A stretch of DNA of 35,186 nt, from contig JAUCBJ010007109.1 of assembly GCA_032718475.1 (NCBI GenBank), positions 1 through 35,186 of the forward strand. The letters are read 5' to 3'. Positions 3,752 through 35,186 of the stretch are shown here, piece after piece. The position numbers were made by a program, and so were the translations under genes. The first letter of the stretch is position 1. Each line of letters starts with the position of its first letter. Below the pieces are notes generated by a model that ran no database searches, was not told where the DNA came from, and was given only the letters and a program-made list of their open reading frames with translations. Origin of the DNA: Nemertoderma westbladi. Taxonomy: Eukaryota; Animalia; Xenacoelomorpha.

Positions 3752-4029
3752 CTACAGTAGGTAGGCCTAGCACTTCCGTACTGAACTACAGTAGGTAGGC
3801 CTAGCACTTCCGTACTGAACTACAGTAGGTAGGCCTAGCACTTCCGTACTGAACTACAGTAGGTAGGCCTAGCACTTCCGTACTGAACTACAGTAGGTAG
3901 GCCTAGCACTTCCGTACTGAACTACAGTAGGTAGGCCTAGCACTTCCGTACTGAACTACAGTAGGTAGGCCTAGCACTTCCGTACTGAACTACATTAGGT
4001 AGGCCTAGCACTTCCGTACTGAACTACAG
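3752..4029. repeat. Minisatellite, 34-bp unit, about 8 copies
   Basis: Unit CTACAGTAGGTAGGCCTAGCACTTCCGTACTGAA, near-perfect. Confidence 0.95.
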
Positions 4030-4972: not shown

Positions 4973-6054
4973 TTGGGTTAGGAGACTTTGTGTTTGGGTT
5001 AGGAGGTGGGCGTTATTTGGGTTAGGAGTTTGGGGTTTGTTTGGCTTATGATGCGGGCGTTGAATGGGTTAGGAGGTGGGCGTTGTTTGGGTTAGGAGGC
5101 TGGGCGTTGTTTGGGTTAGGAGGCGGGCGTTGTTTGGGTTGGGAGACTGGGCGTTGTTTGGGTTAGGAAGCTGGACATTGTCTGTGTAGGAGACTGGGCG
5201 TTGTTTGAGTTAGGAGTTTGGGGGTTGTTTGGGTTAGGATGCGGGCGTTGTTTGGGTTAGGAGTTTAGGGGTTGTTTGGGTTAGGATGCGGGCGTTGTTT
5301 TGGGTTAGGAGGCTGAGCGTTGTTTGGGTTAGGAGGTGGGCGTTGTTTGGGTTAGGAGATTGGGCGTTGTTTGGGTTAGGAGGCTGGGTGTTGTTTGGGT
5401 TAGGATGTGGGCGTTGTTTGGCTTAGGATGCGGGCGTTGTTTTGGGTTAGGAGGCTGGGCGTTGTTTGGGTAAGGAGGTGGTCGTTGTTTGGGTTAGGAG
5501 GTGGGCGTTGTTTGGGTTAGGAAACTGGGCGTTGTTTGGGTTAGGAGGCTGGGTGTTGTTTGGGTTAGGATGTGGGCGTTGTTTGGGTTAGGATGCGGTC
5601 GTTGTTTGGGTTAGGAGACTTGGTGTTTGGGTTAGGAGGTGGGTGTTGTTTGGGTTAGGATGTGGGCGTTGTTTGGGTTAGGATGCGGTCGTTGTTTGGG
5701 ATAGGATACTTGGTGTTTGGGTTAGGAGGTGGGCGTTATTTGGGTTATGAGGTTGGGGGTTGTTTGGGTTAGGAGGCTGGGCGTTGTTTGGGTTAGGAGA
5801 CTTGGTGTTTGGGTTAGGAGGTGGGCGTTATTTGTGTTAGGAGGTAGGGGGTTGTTTGGGTTAGGAGGCTGGGCGTTGTTTGGGTTCGGAAGTTGGGCGT
5901 TGTTTTGGTTAGGAGGTGGGCGTTGTTTGGGTTAGGAGGCTGGGCTTTGTTTGGGTTAGGAGGCTGGGCGTTGTTTGGGTTAGGAGACAGGGCGATGTTT
6001 GGGTTAGGAGGTGGGGGTTGTTTGGGTTTGGTGGTTGGCCGTAGTTGGGGTTAG
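4973..6054. repeat. G-rich minisatellite, 22-23-bp unit
   Basis: Consensus GGGCGTTGTTTGGGTTAGGAGG(C)T with many variants and strong G/T strand skew. Confidence 0.95.
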
Positions 6055-6989
6055 TTATTTACAATTATTGTTTACCCATGCCCCTAATAGTGGCATTAAA
6101 CAGATTCTTCGCCATCTACGTGGCTCGCTCAAAACCTGAAACATTGGAACTAAATTCGCCAGCATTGGAACTAAATTCGCATCCATTGGAATTCAATTAG
6201 ATTTCGTTTTTTCCTCGTTAGTTCGCCAAAATTGGAAATAAGTACGGGGAATCCCACACGCAGGGGTGTACCAGTTTGCCTACAGTACATATACGGCCTA
6301 CGTCATTGAGGGACAATATGTACTGCAATTATGTATGCACAATAAGAATAATAGTCTTGCATAATAAGAAAATAGTTCGCATGTCTCTACATACTAACAT
6401 ACACCCACTCATTCAATTAATTACAACTATTATTTGCAAGGTTACTGAATGTTATAACAAGAAGATGAATACTTTATAGTAAGTTTTGTGCAATTACTAA
6501 AGGTTATTTCATTTGACACAGTATGCAATCTTCCTGTTTACTAATGGTATTTCATGAGACGCAGAATGTAATTCATGTATTATCTATGCCTAATGGCATA
6601 TCATAGTCACCATTACTTAGATAGCACAATACACATGCATGACCAAAATTGAAATGTATAGCAGTAATATTGCACTGATCGCACATTTAATATACTTTTC
6701 AAATAATTGTCACTTAATTAAAAAAATAATTACGATAGTAAGGCCATTGTATACGAGTCAATCAAACACCCGAAATTTGAAATCAATCATAACCACATTT
6801 TTTCTATTCTTTATTATGTTTTTAATTTCAAAATTAAAAGTTTGGGTTTTTTTTTATTTAAATTTATTTTGTTGATGATATGTTGATTCCAGATACAGTA
6901 GTGGCGCACATTGACCGCAAGTGAGATAATTAATAGTTTATTGTTTTGGTTAGAAAACACCGTCATTCGAACCTGCTCCTTTCCCTTAA

Positions 6990-7805
6990 TTGTTTTAGGG
7001 GGGGGGGGGTAACACCCTGGTGTTTTTTTTAAATTTGTTTATATCTCCAATGTGGTTAAAGAAAACTATATACCATCGAAAAGAGAATGAACTCTATATG
7101 ATAAAGTAAGTCTGCCTATGCCTATAAGGATACCATACCAAAATACTACCTATGGCGGTTTTCCTGGTAGGAGAATTCATTTCTGATGTCAGTTTTCAAT
7201 TTTTTGGAAAATCTAGTCTTCTAACTAACTATCTGATGTCTGTCTGTGAGTCAGTTTGTCTGTCGGTCGGTCTGTCCGTCAAAATATAATAATTCGCACA
7301 TAATAGCTAAAAATGTCTCTATGGGGTTTTTCGTAGTCGGTAATTTCATTGCTGATGTCAGTTTTCCATTTTTTGCAAAATCTAGTCTTCTAAATAACAA
7401 TCTGATGTCTGTTTATGAGTCAGTTTATCTGTCGGTCTGTCCGTCAAAATATAATAATTCGCAGAAAATAGCTAAAAATTTCTCTATGGGGGTTTTCGTG
7501 GTCGGTAATTTCATTTCCGATGTCAGTTTTCGTAATTATCTGAATCTGAAAGACAGACAGACAGAAACGCAGGCAGACAGACTGATCAGGTTCCACAAAA
7601 TATGAAAACTTACAACATACATTTTGTAACATTAACATTGTTGCATTCTGACAGGCAGACCAAAAGAGAGACAAACGGACAGATAACCGTTTTTAGATTT
7701 GAAATCCTCATTAAATTCTGCTCTAGATAAAATTTAAAAAAATCCAAAATTTTAACCAGGGGGGAGGGGTTACCCCCCCCCCCCCCCCAACCCCCTTAAT
7801 TAAAT
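6990..7805. repeat. Interspersed repeat with about 165-170-bp internal tandem units and TCTG/CAGA microsatellites (Helentron/DINE-1-like or foldback; class uncertain)
   Basis: Block ctatggNNgttttc...atttcattNctgatgtcagtttt recurs near 7150, 7319 and 7483, with GTCT tracts and loosely inverted G-run/C-run ends (6994-7020, 7756-7800). Confidence 0.55.
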
Positions 7806-8066
7806 TAAACACATTTTTAAAACCCACCCCCATTGACTCGTTCATTCTTAGAAAATATAGGGTGAAGAAGATTTACGAAAAGCACCATATCACTGCCACG
7901 AATGCGTCAAATCCTGATTTATGTAGCACAAATATCAACATCAACATAATTAATCATAATGTACTGACTAAACAGGTGATCGATTGGTGCTAATTACCAC
8001 TGAGGTATAAGAGTTGGGTCTGTGAGGAAACTGGGTATTAACTAGTGACGGGCCTAGCAGGCCCGA

Positions 8067-9302
8067 CCATGGACCATGGAGCCCATTTTGGCACTTAGAA
8101 GGATAATTGAAGAGTTATCAAAAAAGAAAGACAGGCATCTGGCTGTTATATTTGTTGACTTCTTCAAGGCCTTTGATTCAGTCTCTCGCTCACGTATGTT
8201 CAGCATACTTTCATTATATGGGATTCCTGATGAAATTATTGCAGCAATCAGATCAGTATACGATGGTTCGACAACATTTGTGTCTACTGTTGATGGTGAC
8301 ACAGAACCATTTGAAGTGTTATGGGGCGTCCTCCAAGGAGACACACTTGCACCATTCTTGTTCATTATTGTGGTTGACTATGTTCTACGCATGTCCTTAG
8401 ATCATCATAATGATGATGGGGTGATGATAACTCCACCTACTGGCTCCAGAAGTCGAGGAAATCCTGCCAAGTACCTAACTGATCTAGACTTTGCTGATGA
8501 CTTAGGAGTACTCTCAGAATCATTAGAGGGAGCCCAGCGGCTCCTCAGCTCATTAGAACATGCTGCTTCTAGTGTTGGTCTTTTTATTAACTCCAGAAAG
8601 ACAAAAATTCTGACAGTTAACTTTGAAAGTCCTCAGCAAGTCTCTGATCGGATGAGCATAAGCTCAAAGGATGGTATGCTTGAGCATGTGGACGACTTCT
8701 GTTACCTGGGATCATGGATCCGGAAGTCAGGTGAGGACCTTCGAATACGTAAGGGAAAGGCATGGGCAGCCTTGAATAGGCTTTCCAGGATTTGGAAGTC
8801 ACCTAGAATTAATCGGAAACTTAAGGTCCGATTATTCAGAGCAGCAGTAGTTCCAGTACTCCTCTACGGGAGTCCATGCTGGGCTCTAACTGCTGAGGAC
8901 ACCAAATCTCTGGATGGCACATTCACAAGAATGCTACGCCGGGTACATTGTGTCAAGTACAATGCACACATCTCCAACCAGACACTATATAACATTGGAG
9001 GTGTCTCATTGGTTCCCCCAAGCTTGACACTAGAACAAAATCGCCTCCGCTTTGCAGGACATTGCTTTCGCCGTGAGGACCAGCCAGTGCATAATCTTGT
9101 ACTTTGGCAGCCTCATGGAGTGAATAAGCATGGTGGACAGCCCATGACTTTCTTGAGACGCATCTTAAAGGACACTGGCCTTAAAGATGCGGATGATCTA
9201 GCAAATGTCATGGGTGATAGGGAGTTGTGGCGGTGCAATTTTGTTGACAAGCCGGCACAGCATTCTTAAAAATGCAGCTGCAATGCAGCATGCCGATCCT
9301 AG
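8067..9302 (+). mobile_element. 5'-truncated RTE-clade non-LTR retrotransposon with perfect 12-bp TSD
   Basis: TAGCAGGCCCGA at 8055-8066 and 9303-9314 brackets an uninterrupted RT ORF and a very short 3' UTR with no poly(A). Confidence 0.9.
8076..9269 (+). CDS. Reverse transcriptase, C-terminal part of LINE ORF2 (N-terminally truncated)
   Basis: Motifs FVDFFKAFDSV, GVLQGDTLAPFLF, LDFADD, FCYLGS, LLYGSPCW and RLRFAGHCFR are typical of RTE-like RTs. The endonuclease and first RT motifs are absent. Confidence 0.9.
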   Translation: MEPILALRRIIEELSKKKDRHLAVIFVDFFKAFDSVSRSRMFSILSLYGIPDEIIAAIRSVYDGSTTFVSTVDGDTEPFEVLWGVLQGDTLAPFLFIIVVDYVLRMSLDHHNDDGVMITPPTGSRSRGNPAKYLTDLDFADDLGVLSESLEGAQRLLSSLEHAASSVGLFINSRKTKILTVNFESPQQVSDRMSISSKDGMLEHVDDFCYLGSWIRKSGEDLRIRKGKAWAALNRLSRIWKSPRINRKLKVRLFRAAVVPVLLYGSPCWALTAEDTKSLDGTFTRMLRRVHCVKYNAHISNQTLYNIGGVSLVPPSLTLEQNRLRFAGHCFRREDQPVHNLVLWQPHGVNKHGGQPMTFLRRILKDTGLKDADDLANVMGDRELWRCNFVDKPAQHS

Positions 9303-10425: not shown

Positions 10426-10860
10426 CAAACCCTAAAGGGGGGCAAACCCTAAAGGGGGTCAAACCCTAAAGGGGGGGCAAACCCTAAAGGGGGGCAAACC
10501 CTAAAGGGGGGCAAACCCTAAAGGGGGGGCAAACCCTAAAGGGGGCAAACCCTAAAGGGGGGCAAACCCTAAAGGGGGTCAAACCCTAAAGGGGGGGCAA
10601 ACCCTAAAGGGGGGGCAAACCCTAAAGGGGGGCAAACCCTAAAGGGGGGGGCAAACCCTAAAGGGGGGCAAACCCTAAAGGGGGGCAAACCCTAAAGGGG
10701 GTCAAACCCTAAAGGGGGGGGGGCAAACCCTAAAGGGGGGGGCAAACCCTAAAGGGGGGCAAACCCTAAAGGGGGGGGGGGCAAACCCTAAATGGGGGCA
10801 AACCCTAAAGGGGGTCAAACCCTAAAGGGGGGGCAAACCCTAAAGGGGGGGCAAACCCTA
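10426..10860. repeat. Minisatellite CAAACCCTAAA(G)n, mostly 17-18-bp unit, about 24 copies
   Basis: Directly visible; only the G-run length varies much. Confidence 0.95.
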
Positions 10861-14460: not shown

Positions 14461-16597
14461 ACTGTTTGTAACACTACTGTACTGTTGTAACCCTACTGTT
14501 TGTAACACTACTGTACTGTTGTAACCCTACTGTTTGTAACACTACTGTACTGTTGTAACCCTACTGTTTGTAACACTACTGTACTGTTGTAACCCTACTG
14601 TTTGTAACACTACTGTACTGTTGTAACCCTACTGTTTGTAACACTACTGTACTGTTGTAACCCTACTGTTTGTAACACTACTGTACTGCTGTAACCCTAC
14701 TGTTTGTAACACTACTGTACTGTTGTAACCCTACTGTTTGTAACACTACTGTACTGTTGTAACCCTACTGTTTGTAACACTACTGTACTGGTGTAACCCT
14801 ACTGTTTGTAACACTACTATACTGTTGTAACCCTACTGTTTGTAACACTACTGTACTGTTGTAACCCTACTGTTTGTAACACTACTGTACTGTTGTAACC
14901 CTACTGTTTGTAACACTACTGTACTGTTGTAACCCTACTGTTTGTAACACTACTGTACTGTTGTAACCCTACTGTTTGTAACACTACTGTACTGTTGTAA
15001 CCCTACTGTTTGTAACACTACTGTACTGTTGTAACCCTACTGTTTGTAACACTACTGTACTGTTGTAACCCTACTGTTTGTAACACTACTGTACTGTTGT
15101 AACCCTACTGTTTGTAACACTACTGTACTGTTGTAACCCTACTGTTTGTAACACTACTGTACTGTTGTAACCCTACTGTTTGTAACACTACTGTACTGTT
15201 GTAACCCTACTGTTTGTAACACTACTGTACTGTTGTAACCCTACTGTTTGTAACACTACTGTACTGTTGTAACCCTACTGTTTGTAACACTACTGTACTG
15301 TTGTAACCCTACTGTTTGTAACACTACTGTACTGTTGTAACCCTACTGTTTGTAACACTACTGTACTGTTGTAACCCTACTGTTTGTAACACTACTGTAC
15401 TGCTGTAACCCTACTGTTTGTAACACTACTGTACTGTTGTAACCCTACTGTTTGTAACACTACTGTACTGTTGTAACCCTACTGTTTGTAACACTACTGT
15501 ACTGGTGTAACCCTACTGTTTGTAACACTACTATACTGTTGTAACCCTACTGTTTGTAACACTACTGTACTGTTGTAACCCTACTGTTTGTAACACTACT
15601 GTACTGTTGTAACCCTACTGTTTGTAACACTACTGTACTGTTGTAACCCTACTGTTTGTAACACTACTGTACTGTTGTAACCCTACTGTTTGTAACACTA
15701 CTGTACTGTTGTAACCCTACTGTTTGTAACACTACTGTACTGTTGTAACCCTACTGTTTGTAACACTACTGTACTGTTGTAACCCTACTGTTTGTAACAC
15801 TACTGTACTGTTGTAACCCTACTGTTTGTAACACTACTGTACTGTTGTAACCCTACTGTTTGTAACACTACTGTACTGTTGTAACCCTACTGTTTGTAAC
15901 ACTACTGTACTGTTGTAACCCTACTGTTTGTAACACTACTGTACTGTTGTAACCCTACTGTTTGTAACACTACTGTACTGTTGTAACCCTACTGTTTGTA
16001 ACACTACTGTACTGTTGTAACCCTACTGTTTGTAAAACTACTGTACTGTTGTAACCCTACTGTTTGTAACACTACTGTACTGCTGTAACCCTACTGTTTG
16101 TAACACTACTGTACTGTTGTAACCCTACTGTTTGTAACACTACTGTACTGTTGTAACCCTACTGTTTGTAACACTACTGTACTGGTGTAACCCTACTGTT
16201 TGTAACACTACTATACTGTTGTAACCCTACTGTTTGTAACACTACTGTACTGTTGTAACCCTACTGTTTGTAACACTACTGTACTGTTGTAACCCTACTG
16301 TTTGTAACACTACTGTACTGTTGTAACCCTACTGTTTGTAACACTACTGTACTGTTGTAACCCTACTGTTTGTAACACTACTGTACTGTTGTAACCCTAC
16401 TGTTTGTAACACTACTGTACTGTTGTAACCCTACTGTTTGTAACACTACTGTACTGTTGTAACCCTACTGTTTGTAACACTACTGTACTGTTGTAACCCT
16501 ACTGTTTGTAACACTACTGTACTGTTGTAACCCTACTGTTTGTAACACTACTGTACTGTTGTAACCCTACTGTTTGTAACACTACTGTACTGTTGTA
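14461..16597. repeat. Satellite array, 34-bp unit, about 63 copies, with higher-order structure
   Basis: Unit ACTGTTTGTAACACTACTGTACTGTTGTAACCCT, almost invariant. A three-variant pattern recurs at 714- and 680-bp spacing. Confidence 0.97.
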
Positions 16598-16781: not shown

Positions 16782-16903
16782 GTAATAAAGGTTCGCGTAG
16801 CGAGACCCCTAGTAATAAAGGTTCGCGTATCGAGACCCCTAGTAATAAAGGTTTTCGTATCGAGACCCCTAGTAATAAAGGTTCGCGTAGCGAGACCCCT
16901 AGT
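16782..16903 (+). repeat. Four tandem 30-bp units resembling Helitron 3' ends (hairpin + CTAG|T)
   Basis: GTAATAAAGGTTCGCGTAGCGAGACCCCTA x4, containing the hairpin GGT-TCGC-GTA-GCGA-g-ACC followed by CCTAGT. Confidence 0.6.
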
Positions 16904-18079: not shown

Positions 18080-18097
18080 AGAAAATGGGATTTAAGT

Positions 18098-19675
18098 CTA
18101 TAAAATATAACAAATCACAGTTTCTAAAATATAAAGATACTCTAAACAGTTAGTCTTTCTTACACAGATGGCGTTTACGCAGTTTTTTGAGGCTAGCAAG
18201 AGTCCTTTTCTCTTTGGGGCGAGCCACTTTACTAGGAGGGCTATAAATCCTGGGTGAAGGGTGCAATATGATTGCATCAGAAGGTGTAGGATTATGGTCG
18301 GGGTATCCGCCGTTTCGATATGCTTCTCCTCGAGCTGATTTTCCTCCGCTCGTAGCTGGATACGTTCATCCAAAAACTCTCGCAGAGAATGGGGTTGTCT
18401 AAGTTCGATATCTTCTTAGAGATTCTGGATTTCACAATCGAACTGAGATAAAGACAATTCGTTTATCGCTTGGACTTGCTGTTACAACTTACGTTTATCT
18501 GAACAAACGCAGGTTTCCTTTCTGATCTTTGTAGAATAGCGTTTAACTCGTTTGGTACAACGTTCTCCGCCACTTTGGTGACAGGTTATATCGTGTTAAG
18601 CCGCGACGGGACGATGGTAAGGGTTAAACGGCGATATTAAATGTCCGCGTCCCAATCCGGCTAGGCAGAATGGGCTAATATCTAGGAAGCCCACAACTGG
18701 GGTGCCACCGACTAATTGTTCAGGTAACACTAGATCTTTGAGCAGTGAGTACAGCTCGGGAGGATCCGTCATACTAATAGGATCAAGAGTCTGAAGTCTC
18801 ACTAGGGAATGAGGAGTTCTGATCGAGTATTCCGAAACTCTGATCATTGGTTTATTTAAGGATCGTCTGAGTCGAATGAGCGTAGGTGATACATCGAACA
18901 AGTTTCGCTCGAAACTCCCGTAAGTATAGCGAGTAAAACCGTGTTTAAAGCAACGTCTCCGCGGATGTTTATGTCTTTCCGTTTGTTGGTTGGGTCTTGG
19001 GCATTCATCGCAATAATACCAAAAACGCACGTCTTGTAGGGGAAACGCGAGTGATCTTTCTCCAGCTTACAATATTCCTCCATCCGTTCGAAGCTATCCG
19101 GTACAACAGGTAGCGATCGATCGGCGGTAAGATACATCATAGTGGAATAGAGCCGTTTGAGTTCTACCATGCGGTCATGATGTATACCTTGAGGATATCG
19201 AGTTTCTAGATTCTGTTGACTGGTAATATCGAGATAGGTTTCTCTCAAGAATTCCAGGTATTTGGTGGAGTCGCTGCATTTATCCGGCTCTTCGACATCT
19301 GCACTTTCGAGTCGGTTTCGAATAGAATTTTCGTGTTCGAGTCTCAGTTTATCGTTCCGCTTCCGCTGGGTATGATATTTAAATAAACCATTTCCCTTTG
19401 GTGTCTATATCGTTCGTATCGTGTAGGTCGATAGGATGACCAGTAGTTAAGAAGTCCATATACGTACCATTACGATGCGTATAGCGAGCGGTGAATTTTC
19501 TACAGTCTAACCCACGCGCAAGTTGCTCCCGGGACATTGGCGGTTAGATATAACGACCATCGTCCTCCGTAGTAGTTGGACCAGCGTCGCCGCGTATCAA
19601 GCTATCAACAAACGCTTGTAAAGGTAGAGTATATCGTTCCCTGATACCAAGATCATCTTCTATCAACTCAATCAT
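18098..19675 (-). pseudogene. Disrupted accessory ORF of unknown function in the env position
   Basis: Chain of same-strand frames: MIELIEDDLGIRERY... from 19675 (internal stop), an open frame 19404-18856, then 19030-18596 and 18373-18098. Higher GC than the neighbouring AT-rich UTR. No recognised domain. Confidence 0.4.
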
Positions 19676-20502
19676 ATCTGCTATATAAGTTTATCCATAT
19701 TATAATGAGTTTATATTTAGGCGAGCGGGCGTCGCTGCCTACCCCTCTCTGCCCCCGGACAGTGCGAGATCCTCAGCGCTGGTGTACTTTCGCCGATGTG
19801 CCTATCGCCAACGTCGTAGCTGCACAACGACTACAACAACCAGCACGAGTCACTCCACCGTCCGTCCCAAAGGCTTAGATATACTTCAGGTTCTTACTGG
19901 AGAGTTAGGGTTACTTTCACAATTGCGACTCGCTACTGTAAACACACCTTAGTAGTAACATTCACCTACAAACGCACAAATTCCACGTAACAGTCACAAA
20001 TGGTACACATTCTATCACACATTCGGGTCATTTGTCCGTTAGTCAAGTGCCTTCCAGAATGTCACGTTGTTATTATGTATCCTTGGATACTAGCGGTGTG
20101 CTATTTATTCCGTATGCTATTCAATACGCAAGCCCTTTATTGTTCTTTTAACTCACTTCTAATTCTAGCGTGGTTGTTGCCATGGTGACATTATGGAAAG
20201 CTAGCGGTAGAATTAGGGTAATTCTCATGCATACAGATCTGGGATGCTATTTAATAGTAATTCTTTAATTGTCAATATCCTCTCTATATATGATTTTATG
20301 AATTTTATCGGCTATTGACTATACATTGGAGATTCTCACACACAAATACACTTAATATAGTGAATCTCCGCTCCCATGATCTATTAATTAATGGAATTTT
20401 GGGAATGTTATAAATTGTATAAAATTGCAATTTATTAAATTTATTAAAGTATGAATTTAAATTTATTCCCTGAAATTTTATTATTTGATAGTTAAATTGA
20501 CA

Positions 20503-20810
20503 CAATTTGATTCCAGAGCAGGTCTGGGGACATAGGATCCTTAATTCTATGAAAATTGTCTTTTAAGAGTATCGGTAAGTGCTACGATATCTTAATCGAC
20601 TAGAATTGTTAAAGGATCTGAATTTTACAGATTTTGATTTATAGATTTGTAAATATTAAATAATTAATATTTAGGATGGGCACCAATTTATTCCAGAACT
20701 TGTCTGGGGACGTTAACCACTGATTCTAGAATTTTGTCTTTCAAGTATATCGGTGGGTGCCGCGATATCTTAATTGACTAGAATTGCAGATGGTCAAAGG
20801 ATTTAACAGA
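20503..20810. repeat. Diverged tandem duplication (about 180-bp period) in the element's 3' non-coding region
   Basis: caatttNattccaga..gtctggggac..ttgtcttt..atcggt..gatatcttaat.gactagaattg occurs near 20503 and near 20685. Confidence 0.7.
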
Positions 20811-21332
20811 TTTATTTTGCGTTTTACGCTACTGTTAAAGGGACATCACGCTACTATATGTATTATTTAATATACGGTATGAGAGCAATATCGCACGAAG
20901 CAATGTCAGTGTGAAGAGGCAAGTCGTTTCCAAGGTCTACCCAGAGCTTGGTTTAGCCGAGACACGAGGATCTGAACTTTGCATTCCTAATACTCTGCCT
21001 ACCAATAATACTTAAATATAGTAGGAGCTTTATTGTACTTTAATAAGTACGGATATTTCATCTTACTGTAGTCACGTATTTATAATATGATACGGACAGT
21101 AAGGAAAGAGAAAAAGAATTATTTCTCGCCGTCGCACTAAATATAATATACAAGTAATTAAGTAATAAACACTAATATATTGCACTAATCTACTAAATAA
21201 TCGCTAAATAACATTTGACTAAATAAAATTAAAGAAAACGATTATAATAAAATTACATAATAATACATACATAATATAAAATAATAAAAATAAATATAAA
21301 ATAATGTAGTCACACACCCACTCCGTATGTTG

Positions 21333-24300: not shown

Positions 24301-26147
24301 ATAGTAGGGAGTCTTTCTATTGTAATTATTTGGTCTGTGGGTTCTGTACTACCTAAGTTGGTGTTATTTAGTTGCCTTCTAACAGCTGGAGGCAAATCAG
24401 GCAATTTCTGACGGTGGAATGTTCTTTTACGTCTGCTTAGGTGAGATCTATTTCCTTTGCCTTCAGTATCGGTGGTATCGCCTTCCTCAGATGATGTATA
24501 TCCCTGTCTTTTGGGAGTAGATCGATTCATCATCTGCATATTACTAGCTGTTAACTGTTTATTAAAGTTGTCTTGTCTCTCTTGAAGATTTTCCAACTCT
24601 AGTTGGGTTGTCTCTTCAGATGCCCTCCGTTCTGCTTCTGCCACTGCTATTTTTCTTTCCGCTTCGGCCGCCTTTCTTTCCGCTTCTGCTGCTGCCACTT
24701 TTCTTTCCGCTTCAGCCGCCTTTCTTTCGGCTTCTACTGCTGCAGCTGCCACCTTTCTTTCCGCTTCGGCCGCCTTTCTTTCGGCTTCTACTGCTGCAGC
24801 TGCCACCTTTCTTTCCGCTTCGGCCGCCTTTCTTTCGGCTTCTACTGCTGCAGCTGCCGCTTTTGCCTCTGCCGCTGCCGCTTTTGCCTCTGCCGCTGCC
24901 TCTGCCGCTTTTCTATCCACTTCTACCGCTTTTCGTTCCGCTTCTGCCGCTGCCACTGCCGCTGCTGCTGTATTTCTATCTTCTATACGTTTTTTCTTTA
25001 CTTGTTCTTCTTGAACCTTAGCGATGCGGATGCTTTCATTGAATTTAGCTTGGTTCGCAGCTAACCTATCCACATCGATTGCGTCCAACACACGCTGGGC
25101 TCCTTCACTATTAGGGCTAAGCCCCTCTAACCTTCTCCTCAACTCTTCATCACCTAAAAAACGTTGATAGTCTGACAGATAGATGTCAATGGCATCCCTC
25201 TTATGCGGTTTCTCTGCCGTCGCTTCACTTTCCACTTGGGAAAAAGTAGCGTCTGTTGATTCTCCATGGGTTGAGCGCTCCTCCAGCTGAGCTTTCCACT
25301 GAGCTGTTCCTTGAACCTGGCGACTCACCCGTTGAAACCAAGTCTTTACGGCAACTTGCAACGACGTGTCTTGTCTTCTTTTAGAAGCCTCCTCAAAGGC
25401 CGATAAGATTAGCCTAATTCGCAGAATTCTTTCTCTAACTTGATAAAGCAGTTGTCCCTGCTCTTGAGGTCCTTGAGGTTGTTGAAACAGTTGTTCTTTT
25501 ACTCGCTCCATAGAGCTGAAGAATCCCTGTGCGTATCCGGCTGCGGACCTCTTCCACACAGCTGGATCGATGGTTTCCTTGGCTACTCCCATCCGGTGTA
25601 TGTCTTCCCAGGCAGCTTCTGATAAATCAAATGGGAGTCCGGGTCCGGGGAAGTTCCATTGCGACTCAACAATAGACTTCAGTTCTTCCTTTGTGTATCC
25701 CGCATAACTATCTTTAGTCGATTGCTTAGTTCTCGCCCAATCGATCTGGTGTTCTTCCACCGCAATCAATATCCTAGTGAGTACGGCTGCAGGCAGGATG
25801 AGAAGGGGATCCGAATAAACCGCATCCGTCATCTTTGCTCCGCGCTCGGGTGTCAGCTCTACAGTATCCTCACTACTGGAGCTGTTGGGCCGCTGAGAAA
25901 TAAGTTCTTGGCTCGCGGGTTGTTGCTGTTCCGCTGCTTCTTGGTCCCGCTTGACCTGAGCTCGAGTGCCTATGATAGACCTACGATGTTGGACCAGCCT
26001 AGGTTCTGATATTACTACTGGAGGGATGACCTTCCTCACAGTGGGAGGTGAACTGAACTTAGGACTAGACGGTTCTACACCTCTATCTGAGTCGCAGATA
26101 GTTACATCTAATAAACTGTCTGAGAGGTTCTGCTTAGTATCAGACAT
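21333..26147 (-). CDS. gag: BEL/Pao Gag-protease polyprotein with remnant RNase H and integrase C-terminal tails (1604 aa)
   Basis: DUF1759-type Gag (KFNGDEMKW...EKLRFLIECLEG...LNIRYGN, about 23630-23000); three Zn knuckles CVLC..H..C / CYNC....H....C / CAKC...HH.LLH (22766-22572); aspartic protease ALLDSGS...ILIG...TRVGW.FTGP (22250-21805); WRHCPETINLADIASRG...WLGEPDFL (RNase H tail); RPAGRLCLLE (Pol C-terminus). No RT YxDD region or integrase core. Confidence 0.93.
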   Translation of the reverse strand: MSDTKQNLSDSLLDVTICDSDRGVEPSSPKFSSPPTVRKVIPPVVISEPRLVQHRRSIIGTRAQVKRDQEAAEQQQPASQELISQRPNSSSSEDTVELTPERGAKMTDAVYSDPLLILPAAVLTRILIAVEEHQIDWARTKQSTKDSYAGYTKEELKSIVESQWNFPGPGLPFDLSEAAWEDIHRMGVAKETIDPAVWKRSAAGYAQGFFSSMERVKEQLFQQPQGPQEQGQLLYQVRERILRIRLILSAFEEASKRRQDTSLQVAVKTWFQRVSRQVQGTAQWKAQLEERSTHGESTDATFSQVESEATAEKPHKRDAIDIYLSDYQRFLGDEELRRRLEGLSPNSEGAQRVLDAIDVDRLAANQAKFNESIRIAKVQEEQVKKKRIEDRNTAAAAVAAAEAERKAVEVDRKAAEAAAEAKAAAAEAKAAAAAVEAERKAAEAERKVAAAAVEAERKAAEAERKVAAAAVEAERKAAEAERKVAAAEAERKAAEAERKIAVAEAERRASEETTQLELENLQERQDNFNKQLTASNMQMMNRSTPKRQGYTSSEEGDTTDTEGKGNRSHLSRRKRTFHRQKLPDLPPAVRRQLNNTNLGSTEPTDQIITIERLPTIVDEPEIIRPVPEATLSVVETPVLPEPTSQFPLHSTKLPVPSRTAHETVHALDSERNIHDLSPVVPRPPATTLANPASAVEWVDERRRGMDLLLGQMQETVQQFKGTVRESRLELQEVQQSIALELDKLVNLQKGISPPSVTMCQPVRSEVSHAQGVEPTRIYTASEVETPIVNPIKGNYRPVDNDIPYRPDHNPRNLYTDNSILNNTMAQESFTRQMARTEARQAVKVGEIVKFNGDEMKWLPFNEYYKDNIQNSVLSNGEKLRFLIECLEGSPKLMALKFIGHPDGLRQVWDTLNIRYGNRNNIAGYLYAKLVAPRKFISSGIIEFSDEIQEICRQLDWLGKSHEYQSAMVIRALASTLPKGGVGTRWDKKVLYMMEQQRRDPTMADLMSFLDGEVKLQLLRQSREKTPENKVSEKPVSRRKVIPVCYTDDGESQASQEEDSGKDTERSYYDNKMPKDQVGKFKSRTNDRREQVRKTPPTSPKRIQVRKPEERTNVHHTAHVKVSNIKPKCVLCDGPHRLSACDEFLRKSLKDRREVMWDKRLCYNCLRRGHQRRTCYSDVRCAKCGAKHHILLHTEFERNSPSQVSESELHVQFSDVNDIDQYSEMEGFYTDEFSDENESCYLTNTAVYRALTYEKDTDSEPPLTTSDRQPSWKAPPSNVGIREFPVVQVRVHGPKRSYVVNALLDSGSTGTFIDKELAEDIFAGQPKFRTKLNMSGIMQVWKSTVIADYYVGALSTPQDELGEHSIRSVKMVAIKNFATSQVEPYNWDEDDFTQQLEIPRFNTDYPGVQILIGQNAHEALETLEKRPAQPQPLQVYAGRTRVGWYFTGPSRRTLMERLPKEQVYQLSEREVESSEVDDPTEGTPYSSDNDDINSNVDQWRHCPETINLADIASRGATPQELTDTPDWLGEPDFLSKEDEWPPHLNPAAKIRQAKGAEKVTQPLNRPAGRLCLLERDRKLSGNYGRQDTLPTTTSLIQQISRDSIT
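24625..24970 (-). repeat. Coding tandem repeat (AAEAERK; three 54-bp units) forming an Ala/Glu/Lys-rich helical segment in Gag
   Basis: Protein AAAAVEAERKAAEAERKV x3 plus shorter variants; the frame is preserved. Confidence 0.85.
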
Positions 26148-26269
26148 GTTTGTTTACACAGTTGAATGTCTACTACTATATTACAGTCTAAGCAAGTCTA
26201 GTAATTCAGTGTTAACTGCTAGCCTAGTAATTAATTACCGATACTGCTACTCAGTGTAGCGTGATATAT

Positions 26270-26535
26270 AATATATTAGTATACCGGTATGCTTATAGTA
26301 TATATAAGTATTATTACAGACTAGTTTATCACAGAATACCGGTAGGTAATTTTAGCACAAATATATATAAATATATAATAGGCCTATCGTGAATACCGGT
26401 ATGCAGTTTACACTTATAGTGTATATATATAAGTATAATTACAGACTAGAATTAATTACAGAATACCGGTATGATTTCAACCTAAAATTTATAGAAATAA
26501 ATATAATAAGCCTATTGTAAATACCGGTATGTCAA
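26270..26535. repeat. Five diverged units of about 60 bp centred on ATACCGGTA in the 5' leader
   Basis: ataccggta near 26281, 26336, 26393, 26463 and 26521, with alternating units resembling each other. Confidence 0.65.
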
Positions 26536-27504
26536 TTATTTTAGAATAATTGAATTTCTGAATTTTAAGGGTTACTTGGTTACTTTAACTTACTTTATTA
26601 CCGTTATTTAAGCAGTAGTCCAACTGATATTGAGACCTAATTGTTGTATGGCAGGCCTACTATTTATAAATCGTTTGAGTTGATTTATAATATATATTAT
26701 ATACCCGTTGAAATGGGTTTTTGTCAATGTTTGAAATAAATGTTATTATTTCTGGGGGAGTCACTACACATAAGCTGTGCGCTCTCAGTGGAGTGCTACT
26801 TGTTAGACACTAAAACAAATAATTCTAATTTACCTAAGTTACTTAATACTACAAATTACGTACAATTCGGGTTGAGATTACAATCTCTAAATAAACACAA
26901 AAATTTAATTACAAATACACAAATACAAATTTTTAGGGTAATTTTACAAGAAGTCTACTAACCAGCCTAACAAAGGGTTAGAATATCTGGTTATTACAAC
27001 GGACAGGTTACTACGGTATTTGAAAATAATAAGTAGTAGTAAATATACTGCGTTGTCCAGATAGGAAAATACCACCGCCTGACGACCTATAACCGTATCG
27101 CTATAGGTACTACGTTATGTATCACGGAGTGTTCCTACCCAGAAGTTAATTACCGCGGTCTACCAGAACCAACGTGCCTATTAACCACTTTACAACACAA
27201 ATACACTGCCTACACACTAATCACCTTCGGAAAGTACTGTACACTAAACCCTAAATTAGGTACAAGTACTTGTACAACAAATAATTAGTAGTTAAAAATA
27301 CTTGAACAGCTAAAAGAACCACGGTATCTGCCGGAGTGACCAAAGCACAAAATCTCCAGTCTTTACCTACGCCGAGCAGCCCTGATGTAGTACCGGGGTT
27401 AGTTTAACTATAACGGTATGTATAACAAACACAATTACTGTAGGAATAAACTTGGGGATATGAATGTTGCGAATAATCGCATAAACTCTGAATAATAAAT
27501 ATTA

Positions 27505-28069
27505 TGCTACGCGTACAAACTACTCAAACAAAATGCAGACCAAATACTGACAGACTACTATCAAGCCTAAACAAACTACGGTATATGCAGACTCCAAAAT
27601 GATTAGTTAGTATGCGTTCTAACCCAGTAGTACGACTTATTCTTTCACAGGGGGTTTACCTCACAGCACTTGAAGCCCCTACTTTCCTAACTTAGCACTT
27701 TATCGGACAGATGCTCTACACACACCGAAATTTCCTCAAACCCAACAACAGCCAGACAACTATCCAGCCTACAAATTATCTAAATAAAATTATACGCTAC
27801 CCGTACAGACTACACAAACAAAGTACAGACCAAACGCTGGCGGACTCCTATCAGGCCTAAATAAACCACAGGACATGCAGACTCCGAAATGGTTAAGTAG
27901 TATGTGTTCTAACCCAGTAGTACGACTTATTCTTTAGATGGGGGTTTACCTTACAGCTATGGCTGCCCCTACTTCCTAACCGTTCTTTATCGGACATACA
28001 CTCTACATGCACTGCAATCCGTTCAGACCTAATCAACAGTTAGCCAACAGTCAAGCCTACAAATTATCT
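27505..28069. repeat. Diverged tandem duplication (about 290 bp) in the 5' leader
   Basis: Shared blocks including gttctaacccagtagtacgacttattcttt, gggggtttacct and gcctacaaattatct in 27505-27782 and 27795-28069. Confidence 0.85.
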
Positions 28070-28352
28070 GTACAATCTGAGCAGGCTTACACGCCTTCTG
28101 CTCAATACTGGCCTACAAATAAATAAAACTTGACAGAAACAAGTAAAATCTCAATAAAAAACCAGGGCGGCCGTCCCTGATTAATTATTAAGGCCTAACG
28201 GTATATAAATACCAAAATCGAATAATACTGATGTACCTGTACCGTAAGTACCGGTTCGGGCAGTTGGGCCTACAGGCCTACAGCAGTACAGGTTACCGTT
28301 CAACCGGTACCGGTACTTTAGACTTGATTGCTTACACCGCAATCCAGAAGCA

Positions 28353-28363
28353 ATATCTGTTAT
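28353..28363 (-). promoter_or_regulatory. Putative self-priming primer-binding site (ATAACAGATAT)
   Basis: Abuts the 5' LTR, lacks the TGG of a tRNA PBS, and is exactly complementary to LTR positions 29093-29103. Confidence 0.6.
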
Positions 28364-29536
28364 TGTTTGCGCTTTTAAGACCTTTGACAGTTTAACCTGC
28401 CAAAATTAGTATGTCTTTTGGATGATAGATAGTCTTTAGCCTATGACGAGTATTTGATACACTACATTAGCCGAAGCCAGTCTATGCGCAATCATTCACC
28501 CGTTGGATATACCCGGGAGACTGAGTTCGGAGCTTAATGATTGATGGTGTAAGCCTACTGTATTATTCGACTGATCGTAATATATAATCTCTGACAAATA
28601 TTATTCACTTTCGGGAAATATTAACAGTTCCTTTAGGACGTGGCGCTCTAAATATGTAAACAGAGTTATGACTTAAACTAGACACAACGAAAAGGCTATA
28701 GATTCACGTATATGGCGCATTCTTTAGGAGATGCTTTGTTATCAGTTACACTCATACACAATGCTGCACAATACTGCACACTAATCTGCCGACCTTCACT
28801 AAATTTGGTCACGTATAAAGAGAGCAACATACAATTTATGTCGGGCATATGAAATAGCATTAGATTCACTTCAAACCACTTAACATAGGTCGCAATCGTT
28901 TATCTGTAACCGGTCTCTCTAACCTTTAGTATATCAAGAAGGTGGGGTGTCTGACTATTGATCAGTATTCCGATATAATATTTCATCAACCAATATAATG
29001 AATAACCGACAGTAAAAGCAGTAAAGTTAAGGTATAAATGATTATTAAGTGAGTGAATTAACTCGGTAACTCGTTTGCATTGGTATGGTTAGATAACAGA
29101 TATACGTTATATAATTAAGCCTACTAATGTAAGACTAAAGACTGAAACACGGAGGTGCCAAAAGCCGGTGTTCTTAGGCTCTGGGCAAAAACATAACACT
29201 GAATTCCTGAGTTTCTGTATCCACCTCCAACACAGAGACAAAAAACGCTCTGATTGGTCGACCGAACAACGAGAGAACAAAGAAACAAAGAAATGTCGAC
29301 GTGGCAATATCAGCTGTTAGCCGTCGTCATGGTAGCGACACTGTTTTCAAGAGTATCGAGCTTATTGCGTCCCGAAATTGCGGATTATGTCCTCTAAAGT
29401 ACAAATACAGAAGAAATGGCTTTTATGTCCTCTAAAACACCAGTACAGTAAGGACACGGCCTTTTTATGTCCAGTGAACCAACTACAGAGTACTTTACGG
29501 GGAAAATAACCGGCTAATTACGCAAAAGCTTTTACA
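28364..29536 (-). repeat. 5' LTR (1173 bp)
   Basis: Direct repeat of 16904-18071; minus strand TGTAAAAGC...GCGCAAACA; CCAAT motif at 29253-29257. Confidence 0.93.
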
Positions 29537-29699
29537 AAGTGCATTGGATAGGCGTACATTTCTTGCACTGAAAGATTTTTCATACCTGTTATAGTTTTCT
29601 AGACAGTGTCAGACATGATTAGAAAAAATTCGAATTTTTTTGATAAAGTCTGATTTCAACTGTACCTGTAATCCAAAATATCGATTGTAATATATCGTT

Positions 29700-31255
29700 A
29701 GATACGGCTAAGTACATTCACATTTTTTCGGTTAATTTTTTCGATGATCGTTTCTCGAGATATCATCAAAGTACCGGAAACAAACTTTGGACGAACATAT
29801 ATCCGGTACCATTAGGCTTATTGGGTTCAAATTTTTTATTATCTACTTAGAACGCTCAAATGAATGTTATTTAGTTTGTAAGTTTTGCAATAAAATGCAT
29901 AGAAGCAATTTCGAAAAACCTGATCTTTTTGCGATCATGATCTGGGCATTTTCACCAGGCAGAATTGATTTTTTCTTTCGAGATTTTGGTAACCCACCTT
30001 TACCTTACCTACCGCATTTTGGTATATGGTTCGAGATTGATGGTACTGAATCTTTTTTACATTGAAACTTTTTCCATATGGGCAATTCTTCTGTGTCCGA
30101 TTTTTGATCAGAAATGATCTTTCTGATCGTGGCCAAGATCATGATCATGTACCTCCCAAAAAACGTTGTATGTAAAAGTCATATGCTACGGTTTGGCACC
30201 AGTCCCAAGTCCGTAGCATTAGAGGTTCTTAAGAACAACGCATAGCAACGCCTGTTGCTAGGGGACATTTTTGGCACTTTTGATCGTGAAAGTGATGAAG
30301 GCTATCTCGAGAACCACTGGGCTGTTTGAGCCAATTTTTTTTGTAATCAACTCAGAATGGTCCAGTGAACATTTCTTAGAATGAATATTTATTAGAATAA
30401 TCGATTTTAGCATGACTGATATTTGCACGATCATGATTTTGATCCCCAAGGAATTGATCTTTTTTATGCCGAAATTTTGGCCACCCTTCCTAAATCGAGG
30501 GTGAGGAATCTTTTTGTAATGTTAAGTTTTTCCATATGGTGAACTCACAGGACTTGATCTCCGAAAAAACCGAAAACATGATCTTTCCTGATCGTGGCCT
30601 GATAAAATTTCTTTTTTGAAATGTCGAAATATACAGAAGTTGCCCCTTCTCCATAGCAGTCAATTAATAAAAAAAATCGGGGTTCTGATAGATAGTTTTC
30701 GAGTACTTTTGAAAAACCGAAAAACACGATCTTTTTCGATCAGGAAGCGTATCTCGAGAACCGGTTGGCCGATCGAGCAAATTTTTAAATTGACTCAGGG
30801 CGGTGCGTTTGAATGTTTCTTACAGTATTGTTTAATCCCAAAAGCTTAGTTATGCTTTTACGAAGTCTGATCTTTACACGATCATGATCTTTTATTTTGA
30901 TCAGGAAGATTTTTTTTTTCTTTTCGAAAAATGACTACCCTCACTAAATCGATGATTACTAATCTTTTTGTAATGTTAAGTTTTTTGATTGGAATACGTC
31001 TTGAGTGTCAGATTTTTGATCAAACACAATCTTTGCTGATCACAGTCAAGATCATGATTGGGCACCTCCCAAAAAAAGTTTTCAATATAAAACCATATGC
31101 TGCTTACAGTTTGGCGCCAGTCCCAAGTCCATTGCATTAGCGGTTCTCGAGAATGGCACATAGCAATGAGGTTGCTAGTGAAGTTGATTTTTTTACTCAA
31201 ATTGGCCCGATCCGGAGAACCATAGACTTTTTTAATAAGACTTTTTTTTGTTATA
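29700..31255. repeat. Non-coding interspersed element built of diverged internal subrepeats (class not assigned)
   Basis: Recurrent tctcgagaa and gatcatgat motifs; gtttggc.ccagtcccaagtcc...gcattag.ggttct occurs near 30190 and 31109; aatcttttt.gtaatgttaagtttt occurs near 30507 and 30961. Confidence 0.55.
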
Positions 31256-33015: not shown

Positions 33016-33688
33016 AGTATAAATATAAGTAAATATTACTCCTTGTTAGAGCAGTTCGTTACTAAATTGCTAACAGGAGTGTACTACAGTATAAATATAA
33101 GTAATTATTACTCCTTGTTAGAGCAGTTCGTTACTAAATTGCTAACAGGAGTGTACTACAGTATAAATATAAGTAATTATTACTCCTTGTTAGAGCAGTT
33201 CGTTACTAAATTGCTAACAGGAGTGTACTACAGTATAAATATAAGTAATTATTACTCCTTGTTAGAGCAGTTCGTTACTAAATTGCTAACAGGAGTGTAC
33301 TACAGTATAAATATAAGTAATTATTACTCCTTGTTAGAGCAGTTCGTTACTAAATTGCTAACAGGAGTCAGTGTACTACAGTATAAATATAAGTAATTAT
33401 TACTCCTTGTTAGAGCAGTTCGTTACTAAATTGCTAACAGGAGTGTACTACAGTATAAATATAAGTAATTATTACTCCTTGTTAGAGCAGTTCGTTACTA
33501 AATTGCTAACAGGAGTGTACTACAGTATAAATATAAGTAATTATTACTCCTTGTTAGAGCAGTTCGTTACTAAATTGCTAGCAGGAGTCAGTGTACTACA
33601 GTATAAATATAAGTAATTATTACTCCTTGTTAGAGCAGTTCGTTACTAAATTGCTAGCAGGAGTCAGTGTACTACAGTATAAATATAA
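33016..33688. repeat. Minisatellite, 72-bp unit (76-bp variants), about 9 copies, each with an internal hairpin
   Basis: Unit AGTATAAATATAAGTAATTATTACTCCTTGTTAGAGCAGTTCGTTACTAAATTGCTAACAGGAGTGTACTAC; three units carry an extra CAGT. Confidence 0.95.
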
Positions 33689-33970
33689 ATAATGTATCGA
33701 TGTCATTATTGGTCATTATTTTTGTCATAAAAGTGATTTACACGTACATTAATACTATACGTTTGTGCATATGTATGTAATCATTTTCACAATAAATTAC
33801 TGTGAAATATGTTTAGTAATTATCCTGTATTATGTTGATTAGAAAGTATACAGTAATTAATGAAATCTCAACAATTCTCATATTTTCCTATTTCGGTTAG
33901 ATTAATGGGCCGATCCCAATACTTAAAAACATTATCTACTCTTCTATAGAACTGCAATATCCAATCAAAA

Positions 33971-35186
<1,216 letters not shown>

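Follow-up and report, generated by a model that had tools for sequence, protein, structure and literature searches.

Candidate tRNA-independent self-priming in a BEL/Pao element of Nemertoderma westbladi and family-specific PBS-LTR pairing in its distant relatives

The window analysed here, a contig of 35,186 nt from the xenacoelomorph Nemertoderma westbladi (JAUCBJ010007109.1, assembly GCA_032718475.1), carries on its minus strand an element bounded by two TG..CA LTRs that are 94% alike, the 5' LTR at 29536-28364 (1173 nt) and the 3' LTR at 18071-16904 (1168 nt). In the direction of transcription, the 5' LTR is followed immediately by the presumed primer binding site (PBS, 28363-28353), a 2.2-kb leader (28352-26148) with an internal duplication (27494-27781 and 27783-28069), a single long ORF for Gag and protease (26147-21333, 1604 aa counted from the first ATG), a 3.2-kb stretch with short ORFs (21332-18084), and a polypurine tract (18083-18072) that adjoins the 3' LTR. 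The Gag contains DUF1759 (PF03564, Pfam E-value 7.7e-11) and BEL-type zinc knuckles, followed by an aspartic protease; its N-terminus is unusually long, with about 850 aa before DUF1759 and a tandem expansion rich in Ala, Glu, Arg and Lys (24630-24968). A short remnant 3' of the protease matches the segment that follows RNase H in BEL/Pao Pol, and the Pao domain (PF05380) was present in 9 of 9 matches of one protein search and in 15 of the 18 top matches scanned. Since reverse transcriptase (RT), RNase H and integrase are absent, this copy is non-autonomous. Its closest protein relatives are only about 30% alike overall, and neither an autonomous partner nor a close relative was found among the protein database matches, including a search of shorter proteins. 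The ORFs of 18084-21332 are 105-182 aa long; three of them gave no match in Pfam, and the longest (182 aa, 19404-18856) had no database match. Rfam returned no match for the leader and 5' LTR region (26100-29700).

No target-site duplication was found; the flanks of the two LTRs differ, and a 30-nt tandem array (16782-16903, 4.1 copies) starts exactly where the 3' LTR ends. The element is likely a recombinant or converted copy. The window also holds other repeats: two 34-nt tandem arrays of differing sequence (14461-16597, 62.9 copies, and 3752-4029, 8.2 copies, both with 99% matches), a G-rich 24-nt array with TTAGG-like words (4991-6054), a 17-nt array (10426-10860), a 72-nt array (33016-33693) and 405 perfect ACT repeats (33971-35186) that continue off its end. 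A 403-aa frame with RVT_1 and DUF6451 (8058-9269) is likely a fragment of a non-LTR element; a portion of it recurs, inverted and 82% alike, at 2095-2590.

An earlier note on this DNA had proposed that the element primes its own reverse transcription without a tRNA, on the grounds that the LTR contains an exact 11-nt complement of the PBS, that the paired stretch goes no further than the LTR edge, and that no TGG is present. This arrangement was confirmed. The 11 bases immediately after the 5' LTR, 28363-28353, pair exactly with 29103-29093 in the 5' LTR and with the second copy of that motif, 17638-17628, in the 3' LTR; the pairing ends at the LTR edge with no extension to either side, no TGG follows the 5' LTR, and no further complement occurs anywhere in the window. 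The chance of such a match was put at about 1 in 1000 in the note; dinucleotide shuffles of the LTR gave at least 11 nt at offset 0 in 28 of 20,000 cases and at offsets 0-3 in 67 of 20,000. A complement of this kind exists for 14 of 27,814 positions of the window, the PBS included, and under the looser scoring applied to the relatives described below 10 of 2,000 shuffles matched. The published rule for predicting self-priming, at least 10 nt of complementarity to the LTR beginning 0-5 nt past the 5' LTR (PMC6317226, accessible text), covers the element, with 11 nt at offset 0. Neither the window nor the 78 loci of BEL/Pao relatives contain a tRNA gene, and this LTR holds no complement of at least 11 nt that would span a splice junction.

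Conservation of the candidate primer (29103-29093, minus strand) was followed in assembled contigs from four of seven public runs, X1, X3 and X4 among them, in which the family is abundant, with 9,921 X1 contigs falling on 1.5 kb. Depth, taken as the sum over contigs and declining gradually across the motif, goes in X1 from 149,701 at 29094-29099 to 53,101 at 29088-29093 and 5,085 at 29082-29087 (398 contigs, 4 runs), and in X3 from 92,123 to 35,611 and 5,098 over the same intervals, so that the last step is tenfold in X1 and sevenfold in X3. Four of the 25 pieces displayed start at 29092, and 3 of 14 joints re-enter element sequence at 29091/29092 after unalignable sequence. The conservation edge marked by this fall in depth, by the contig starts and by the joints (29092-29091, minus strand) matches the predicted cut site, with a putative functional R starting at 29092, and a hypervariable stretch (29090-29026) lies directly after the primer. 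Depth dips right after the primer (29026-29077) and right after the PBS (28298-28349), dropping tenfold past the latter in X1, from 345,631 to 33,796.

None of the 12 substitutions listed lies within 29085-29130, in a table whose 2% threshold overlooks rare alleles such as the 3' LTR's own at 29109. The adjoining block 29104-29130 is just as invariant as the motif, and promoter constraint could therefore account for part of the motif's conservation. Both flanks are altered in two divergent versions of the family, one in X4 (a run labelled as a different organism) and one in X3, yet 10 of the 11 motif letters stay in register; the changes within the motif, T to C at primer position 6 and G to T at position 7, were seen for the primer side only and would leave one mismatch each if the paired PBS is unchanged. 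Of 47 loose ends, 19 were displayed, and none of these is intron-like within the motif. One X1 contig (depth 78) skips 29055-29163, motif included.

The two LTRs of the element differ unevenly along their length: there are 4 differences in the 444 nt through the motif and 53 events in the 729 nt beyond. The change point is best placed at 29075, and its support range, 29139-29065, takes in 29103. The switch in divergence to which the earlier note had drawn attention is therefore real, although its use there as an independent pointer to a transcription start near 29103 does not hold, because a gene conversion ending in the hypervariable stretch would look alike. The switch is compatible with self-priming, as it fits a strand-transfer mosaic broken at the cut site, but gene conversion halted in the hypervariable stretch would fit too. 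At five U3 positions (29204, 29206, 29221, 29372 and 29473) both LTRs have the allele that is rarer in the family, and at nine R-U5 positions (28420-28851) the LTRs differ from one another, many family contigs there also deviating from the 5' LTR. A single recent origin of U3 and two of R-U5, together with the missing target-site duplication, point to recombination or conversion.

As the note had observed, there is no well-spaced TATA box: the sole TATATA upstream of the motif lies 10 nt before it (29113) and occurs in the 5' LTR only. A CCAAT box (29257-29253, minus strand), possibly an upstream promoter element, is found 154 nt before the primer, and TCAGT occurs upstream of the motif at 29202 and 29145; these signals may point to a start further upstream than 29103. 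After the predicted cut this element has no canonical polyadenylation signal, and the stretch from the cut to the LTR end measures 729 nt, as against 71-278 nt in relatives.

In computed RNA folds the primer-PBS duplex is worth -10.5 kcal/mol. When the RNA is folded freely the two segments pair with a probability of at most 0.02-0.04, and forcing the duplex costs 4.9-15.3 kcal/mol, varying with the assumed start. A 6-bp U5 stem is predicted next to the PBS, and the sequence past the PBS is predicted, with no shuffle control, to fold locally instead, into a hairpin at 28344-28326 (minus strand). Of the two duplexes that flank the primer in Tf1, one is loosely predicted here. Segments of U3 (29383-29370 and 29402-29393) are also predicted, again with no control, to pair with the leader at 28349-28313 if transcription starts at about 29400, and an exact 10-nt complement to the leader just after the PBS is present at 29402.

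The earlier note had suggested surveying related BEL/Pao families for PBS/LTR complementarity. A metagenome scan, biased by its query toward one broad clade, confirmed 467 BEL/Pao loci, of which 78 were kept and grouped into 51 families; no BEL/Pao relatives were found in viral contigs. None of the 78 loci shows DNA similarity to the element's LTR, and searches of metagenome, viral and genome contigs did not recover the element's own PBS/LTR-end pattern. In a quick tree built from 58 Gag-protease rows, which contained no references from the named BEL/Pao clades (Sinbad, Suzu, Tas, BEL, Pao, Flow, Dan, Sparrow, Surcouf), the element sits on a long, unresolved branch outside the supported clade that takes in the 32 surveyed loci of the tree. 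The relatives are therefore distant, and their mechanism need not share an ancestry with that of the element.

In eight families both LTR ends could be fixed by direct repeats, after direct repeats without a CA edge, nested repeats and assembly overlaps had been left aside. A first pass at offsets 0-3 found five of the eight positive; offsets were then widened to 0-5, following the rule of PMC6317226 (accessible text), and the LTR end of L068 was reset. In this second pass none of the eight had the normal TGG PBS, and each PBS had a complement of 10-15 nt in the LTR of its own element. The complement is contiguous in two families; in the other six it exists solely across a GTAAGT..AG intron 76-164 nt long. 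Shuffles matched in 0, 0, 1, 49, 1, 0, 0 and 8 of 2,000 trials, and every PBS scored highest with its own LTR, the 72 cross pairs reaching at most 10. All eight carry AATAAA or ATTAAA 6-128 nt past the predicted cut.

A blind scan was applied to 56 of the 78 loci, representing 38 families, the remainder having a partial match or less than 250 nt upstream. Complementarity of at least 11 nt turned up in 19 of the 38 families; among cross-family controls it did so in 7 of 304, and these controls may be a little lenient where the partner contig was short. The 19 families below 11 nt include many with truncated LTRs. In 15 of the 19 positive families, against 1 of 304 controls, the last two primer letters are AC or AT and the next letter is C; the element's motif likewise ends in AT then C. 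Among 19 PBS 11-mers, from this element and 18 families (L009, which lacks the shared primer end, being excluded), 18 are distinct; primer and PBS covary across these distant families. Contiguous primers like that of the element occur in L006, L018, L028, L040, L059, L070 and L071. Where the relatives have a TATA-like box it lies mostly 85-170 nt upstream of the primer (L007 and L008 left out); in L040 the distance to the contiguous primer is about 120 nt. In L023 (1-214, 6769-7265), L040 (1-326, about 6694-7103) and L042, one LTR bears a GTAAGT..AG intron and the other has the exactly intron-less form at the primer junction. The mixed forms of L023 and of L040/L042 suggest that the intron was lost when spliced RNA was reverse-transcribed, or that copies of two types were assembled together.

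Conservation of the motif and the family-specific pairing of the relatives lend strong indirect support to the tRNA-independent self-priming that the earlier note had put forward for a BEL/Pao element, and the element likely primes itself in one geometry or another; the part of that proposal which had the transcript begin at the primer, exactly as in Tf1, is probably unnecessary. As to the geometry, we lean slightly towards an internal primer that is provided by the 5' LTR copy within a longer leader and not at the cap. Transcription would start in the 5' LTR upstream of 29103. The segment 29103-29093 would then fold back on the PBS, which lies some 740 nt further downstream; Gag would probably assist, since the duplex is absent from the minimum-energy fold. 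RNase H acting in trans from an autonomous partner would then make a single cut 3' of 29093 (29093/29092), freeing a 3' OH from which RT would copy U5 and R back to the cut; the subsequent jump to the 3' LTR would restore the primer together with everything upstream of it. A free 3' OH should need only a cut 3' of the primer, which can therefore lie inside a longer leader. By analogy, the splice-built primers of the relatives would imply such a leader, and because these primers span splice junctions and the TATA-like boxes lie mostly 85-170 nt upstream, a start at 29103 is probably not required. In many relatives the equivalent primer would come about when an LTR intron is spliced out, and the present family would have it ready-made.

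Self-priming exactly as in Tf1 would require an RNA that starts at 29103 or the adjoining base and whose first 11 bases serve as the primer. Tf1 is described as priming with its own first 11 bases, RNase H cutting between bases 11 and 12 (PMC7175516, accessible text), and the present primer resembles it in being 11 nt long, contiguous and at offset 0. The change-point range takes in 29103, the divergent variants are altered immediately upstream of the motif, and none of the loose ends displayed (19 of 47) is intron-like within it. We nevertheless regard this geometry as unlikely: there is no TATA 25-30 nt upstream, the CCAAT at -154 and the TCAGT at 29145 and 29202 may place the start further upstream, the relatives' primer crosses a splice junction or lies some 120 nt after a TATA (L040), and just one of Tf1's two flanking duplexes is predicted, loosely. 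Another version of self-priming takes the primer from the 3' LTR copy (17638-17628), in the same or a co-packaged RNA, with the TATA-like box at 29113 putting the start at about 29083. That box does lie inside the invariant block, and conservation stops about where such a start would be; but the TATATA is missing from the 3' LTR, the region around 29083 is hypervariable and in this unlike an initiator, the TATA-like boxes of the relatives sit upstream of the primer, and a cut there would presumably strip R from the priming RNA so that a second RNA would be required. We consider it very improbable.

Two further explanations do without self-priming. The primer might be a host RNA, such as an internal tRNA fragment or another small RNA, the LTR match being due to chance or to promoter function. 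BEL/Pao elements are described by the ICTV as primed by tRNA-Arg or tRNA-Gly (PMC8742986), half-tRNA priming is known in copia lineages (PMC6317226, accessible text), and a 1-in-700 match can arise when many stretches of DNA are scanned. This explanation must contend with a PBS that lacks TGG, with 10 of 11 motif letters retained in divergent copies, with the primer end (AC or AT, then C) that the element has in common with the relatives, and with the diversity of the relatives' PBSs, each of which matches its own LTR alone and often only after splicing; so many family-specific sequences speak against any small set of host RNAs, and we hold a host primer to be rather improbable. Alternatively, the pairing may be real and serve packaging, a dimer contact or shielding of the PBS, with priming by other means. 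The weakness of the duplex (-10.5 kcal/mol) suits such a structural or regulatory role, and the cleavage and extension that priming calls for are themselves inferred; against it, all positive families have a paired stretch that starts within 0-5 nt of the LTR edge and their primers have a common 3' end, which is the geometry required of a primer, and no alternative primer site is evident. We judge this the least probable of the readings weighed here.

Beyond this locus, we consider it fairly probable that a broad part of BEL/Pao has exchanged tRNA priming for a self-primer internal to the RNA, in many families spliced together from an LTR intron, and that the present element is a ready-made form derived from reverse-transcribed spliced RNA. 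If self-priming in BEL/Pao is borne out, this would be the third LTR superfamily to use it, after the gypsy and copia lineages named in the work cited below; it may make these elements independent of host tRNAs and spare them silencing by PBS-directed tRNA fragments, would account for BEL/Pao annotations without a PBS, and would offer a simple rule for locating LTR edges and R. The splice-built form of the relatives would couple the start of reverse transcription to host splicing, a link not found in the literature searched.

Among known systems, the element is by its proteins a high-copy BEL/Pao element, while lacking the PBS feature that the ICTV gives for Belpaoviridae (Semotivirus), an 18-nt PBS for the 3' end of tRNA-Arg or tRNA-Gly (PMC8742986). 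It shares with that family a Gag with DUF1759, zinc knuckles, protease, TG..CA LTRs of 0.2-1.2 kb and a polypurine tract; unlike it, the element has no 18-nt tRNA PBS and no RT, RNase H or integrase, and its leader is 2.2 kb long. By word search, primer sites are not discussed in the main text of three BEL/Pao papers (PMC3118150, PMC554778, PMC6238403), and the accessible parts of PMC3601003, PMC8220671, PMC5443660 and PMC7472051 add no case of BEL/Pao self-priming. Neither BEL/Pao self-priming nor a splice-built primer was found in a literature search conducted on partial texts and outside most subscription journals, Repbase, GyDB and supplements.

Self-priming has been reported or predicted for Tf1/sushi elements and predicted for the Tcn1 clade of gypsy and the TAR/Houba/Osr-1 lineage of copia (PMC6317226, accessible text), as well as reported or predicted for several fungal elements (PMC6934838, accessible text). 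The rule by which Tcn1 and TAR/Houba/Osr-1 were recognized applies equally to the present element; these are plant and fungal elements of other superfamilies, and a splice-built primer is not mentioned for them in the accessible text. The closest parallel is with Tf1, Tf2, Tj1 and the Tf1/sushi group, whose PBS has no tRNA match (PMC7175516, PMC10085805, accessible text): as in these, the element's 11-nt PBS adjoins the 5' LTR and complements LTR-derived RNA. Tf1/sushi elements are Ty3/gypsy chromoviruses, whereas the Gag and protease of the element are BEL/Pao, so that it is not a member of that group. Tf1 primes within a structure of three duplexes, the pretzel (PMC10085805, accessible text), which is not clearly predicted in the element, where about 740 nt separate primer and PBS; moreover, unlike that of Tf1, the element's primer is predicted to be internal and not located at the cap, and distant relatives split theirs by an intron. 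With these differences, the proposed priming of the element is akin to Tf1 self-priming, though outside the Tf1/sushi group.
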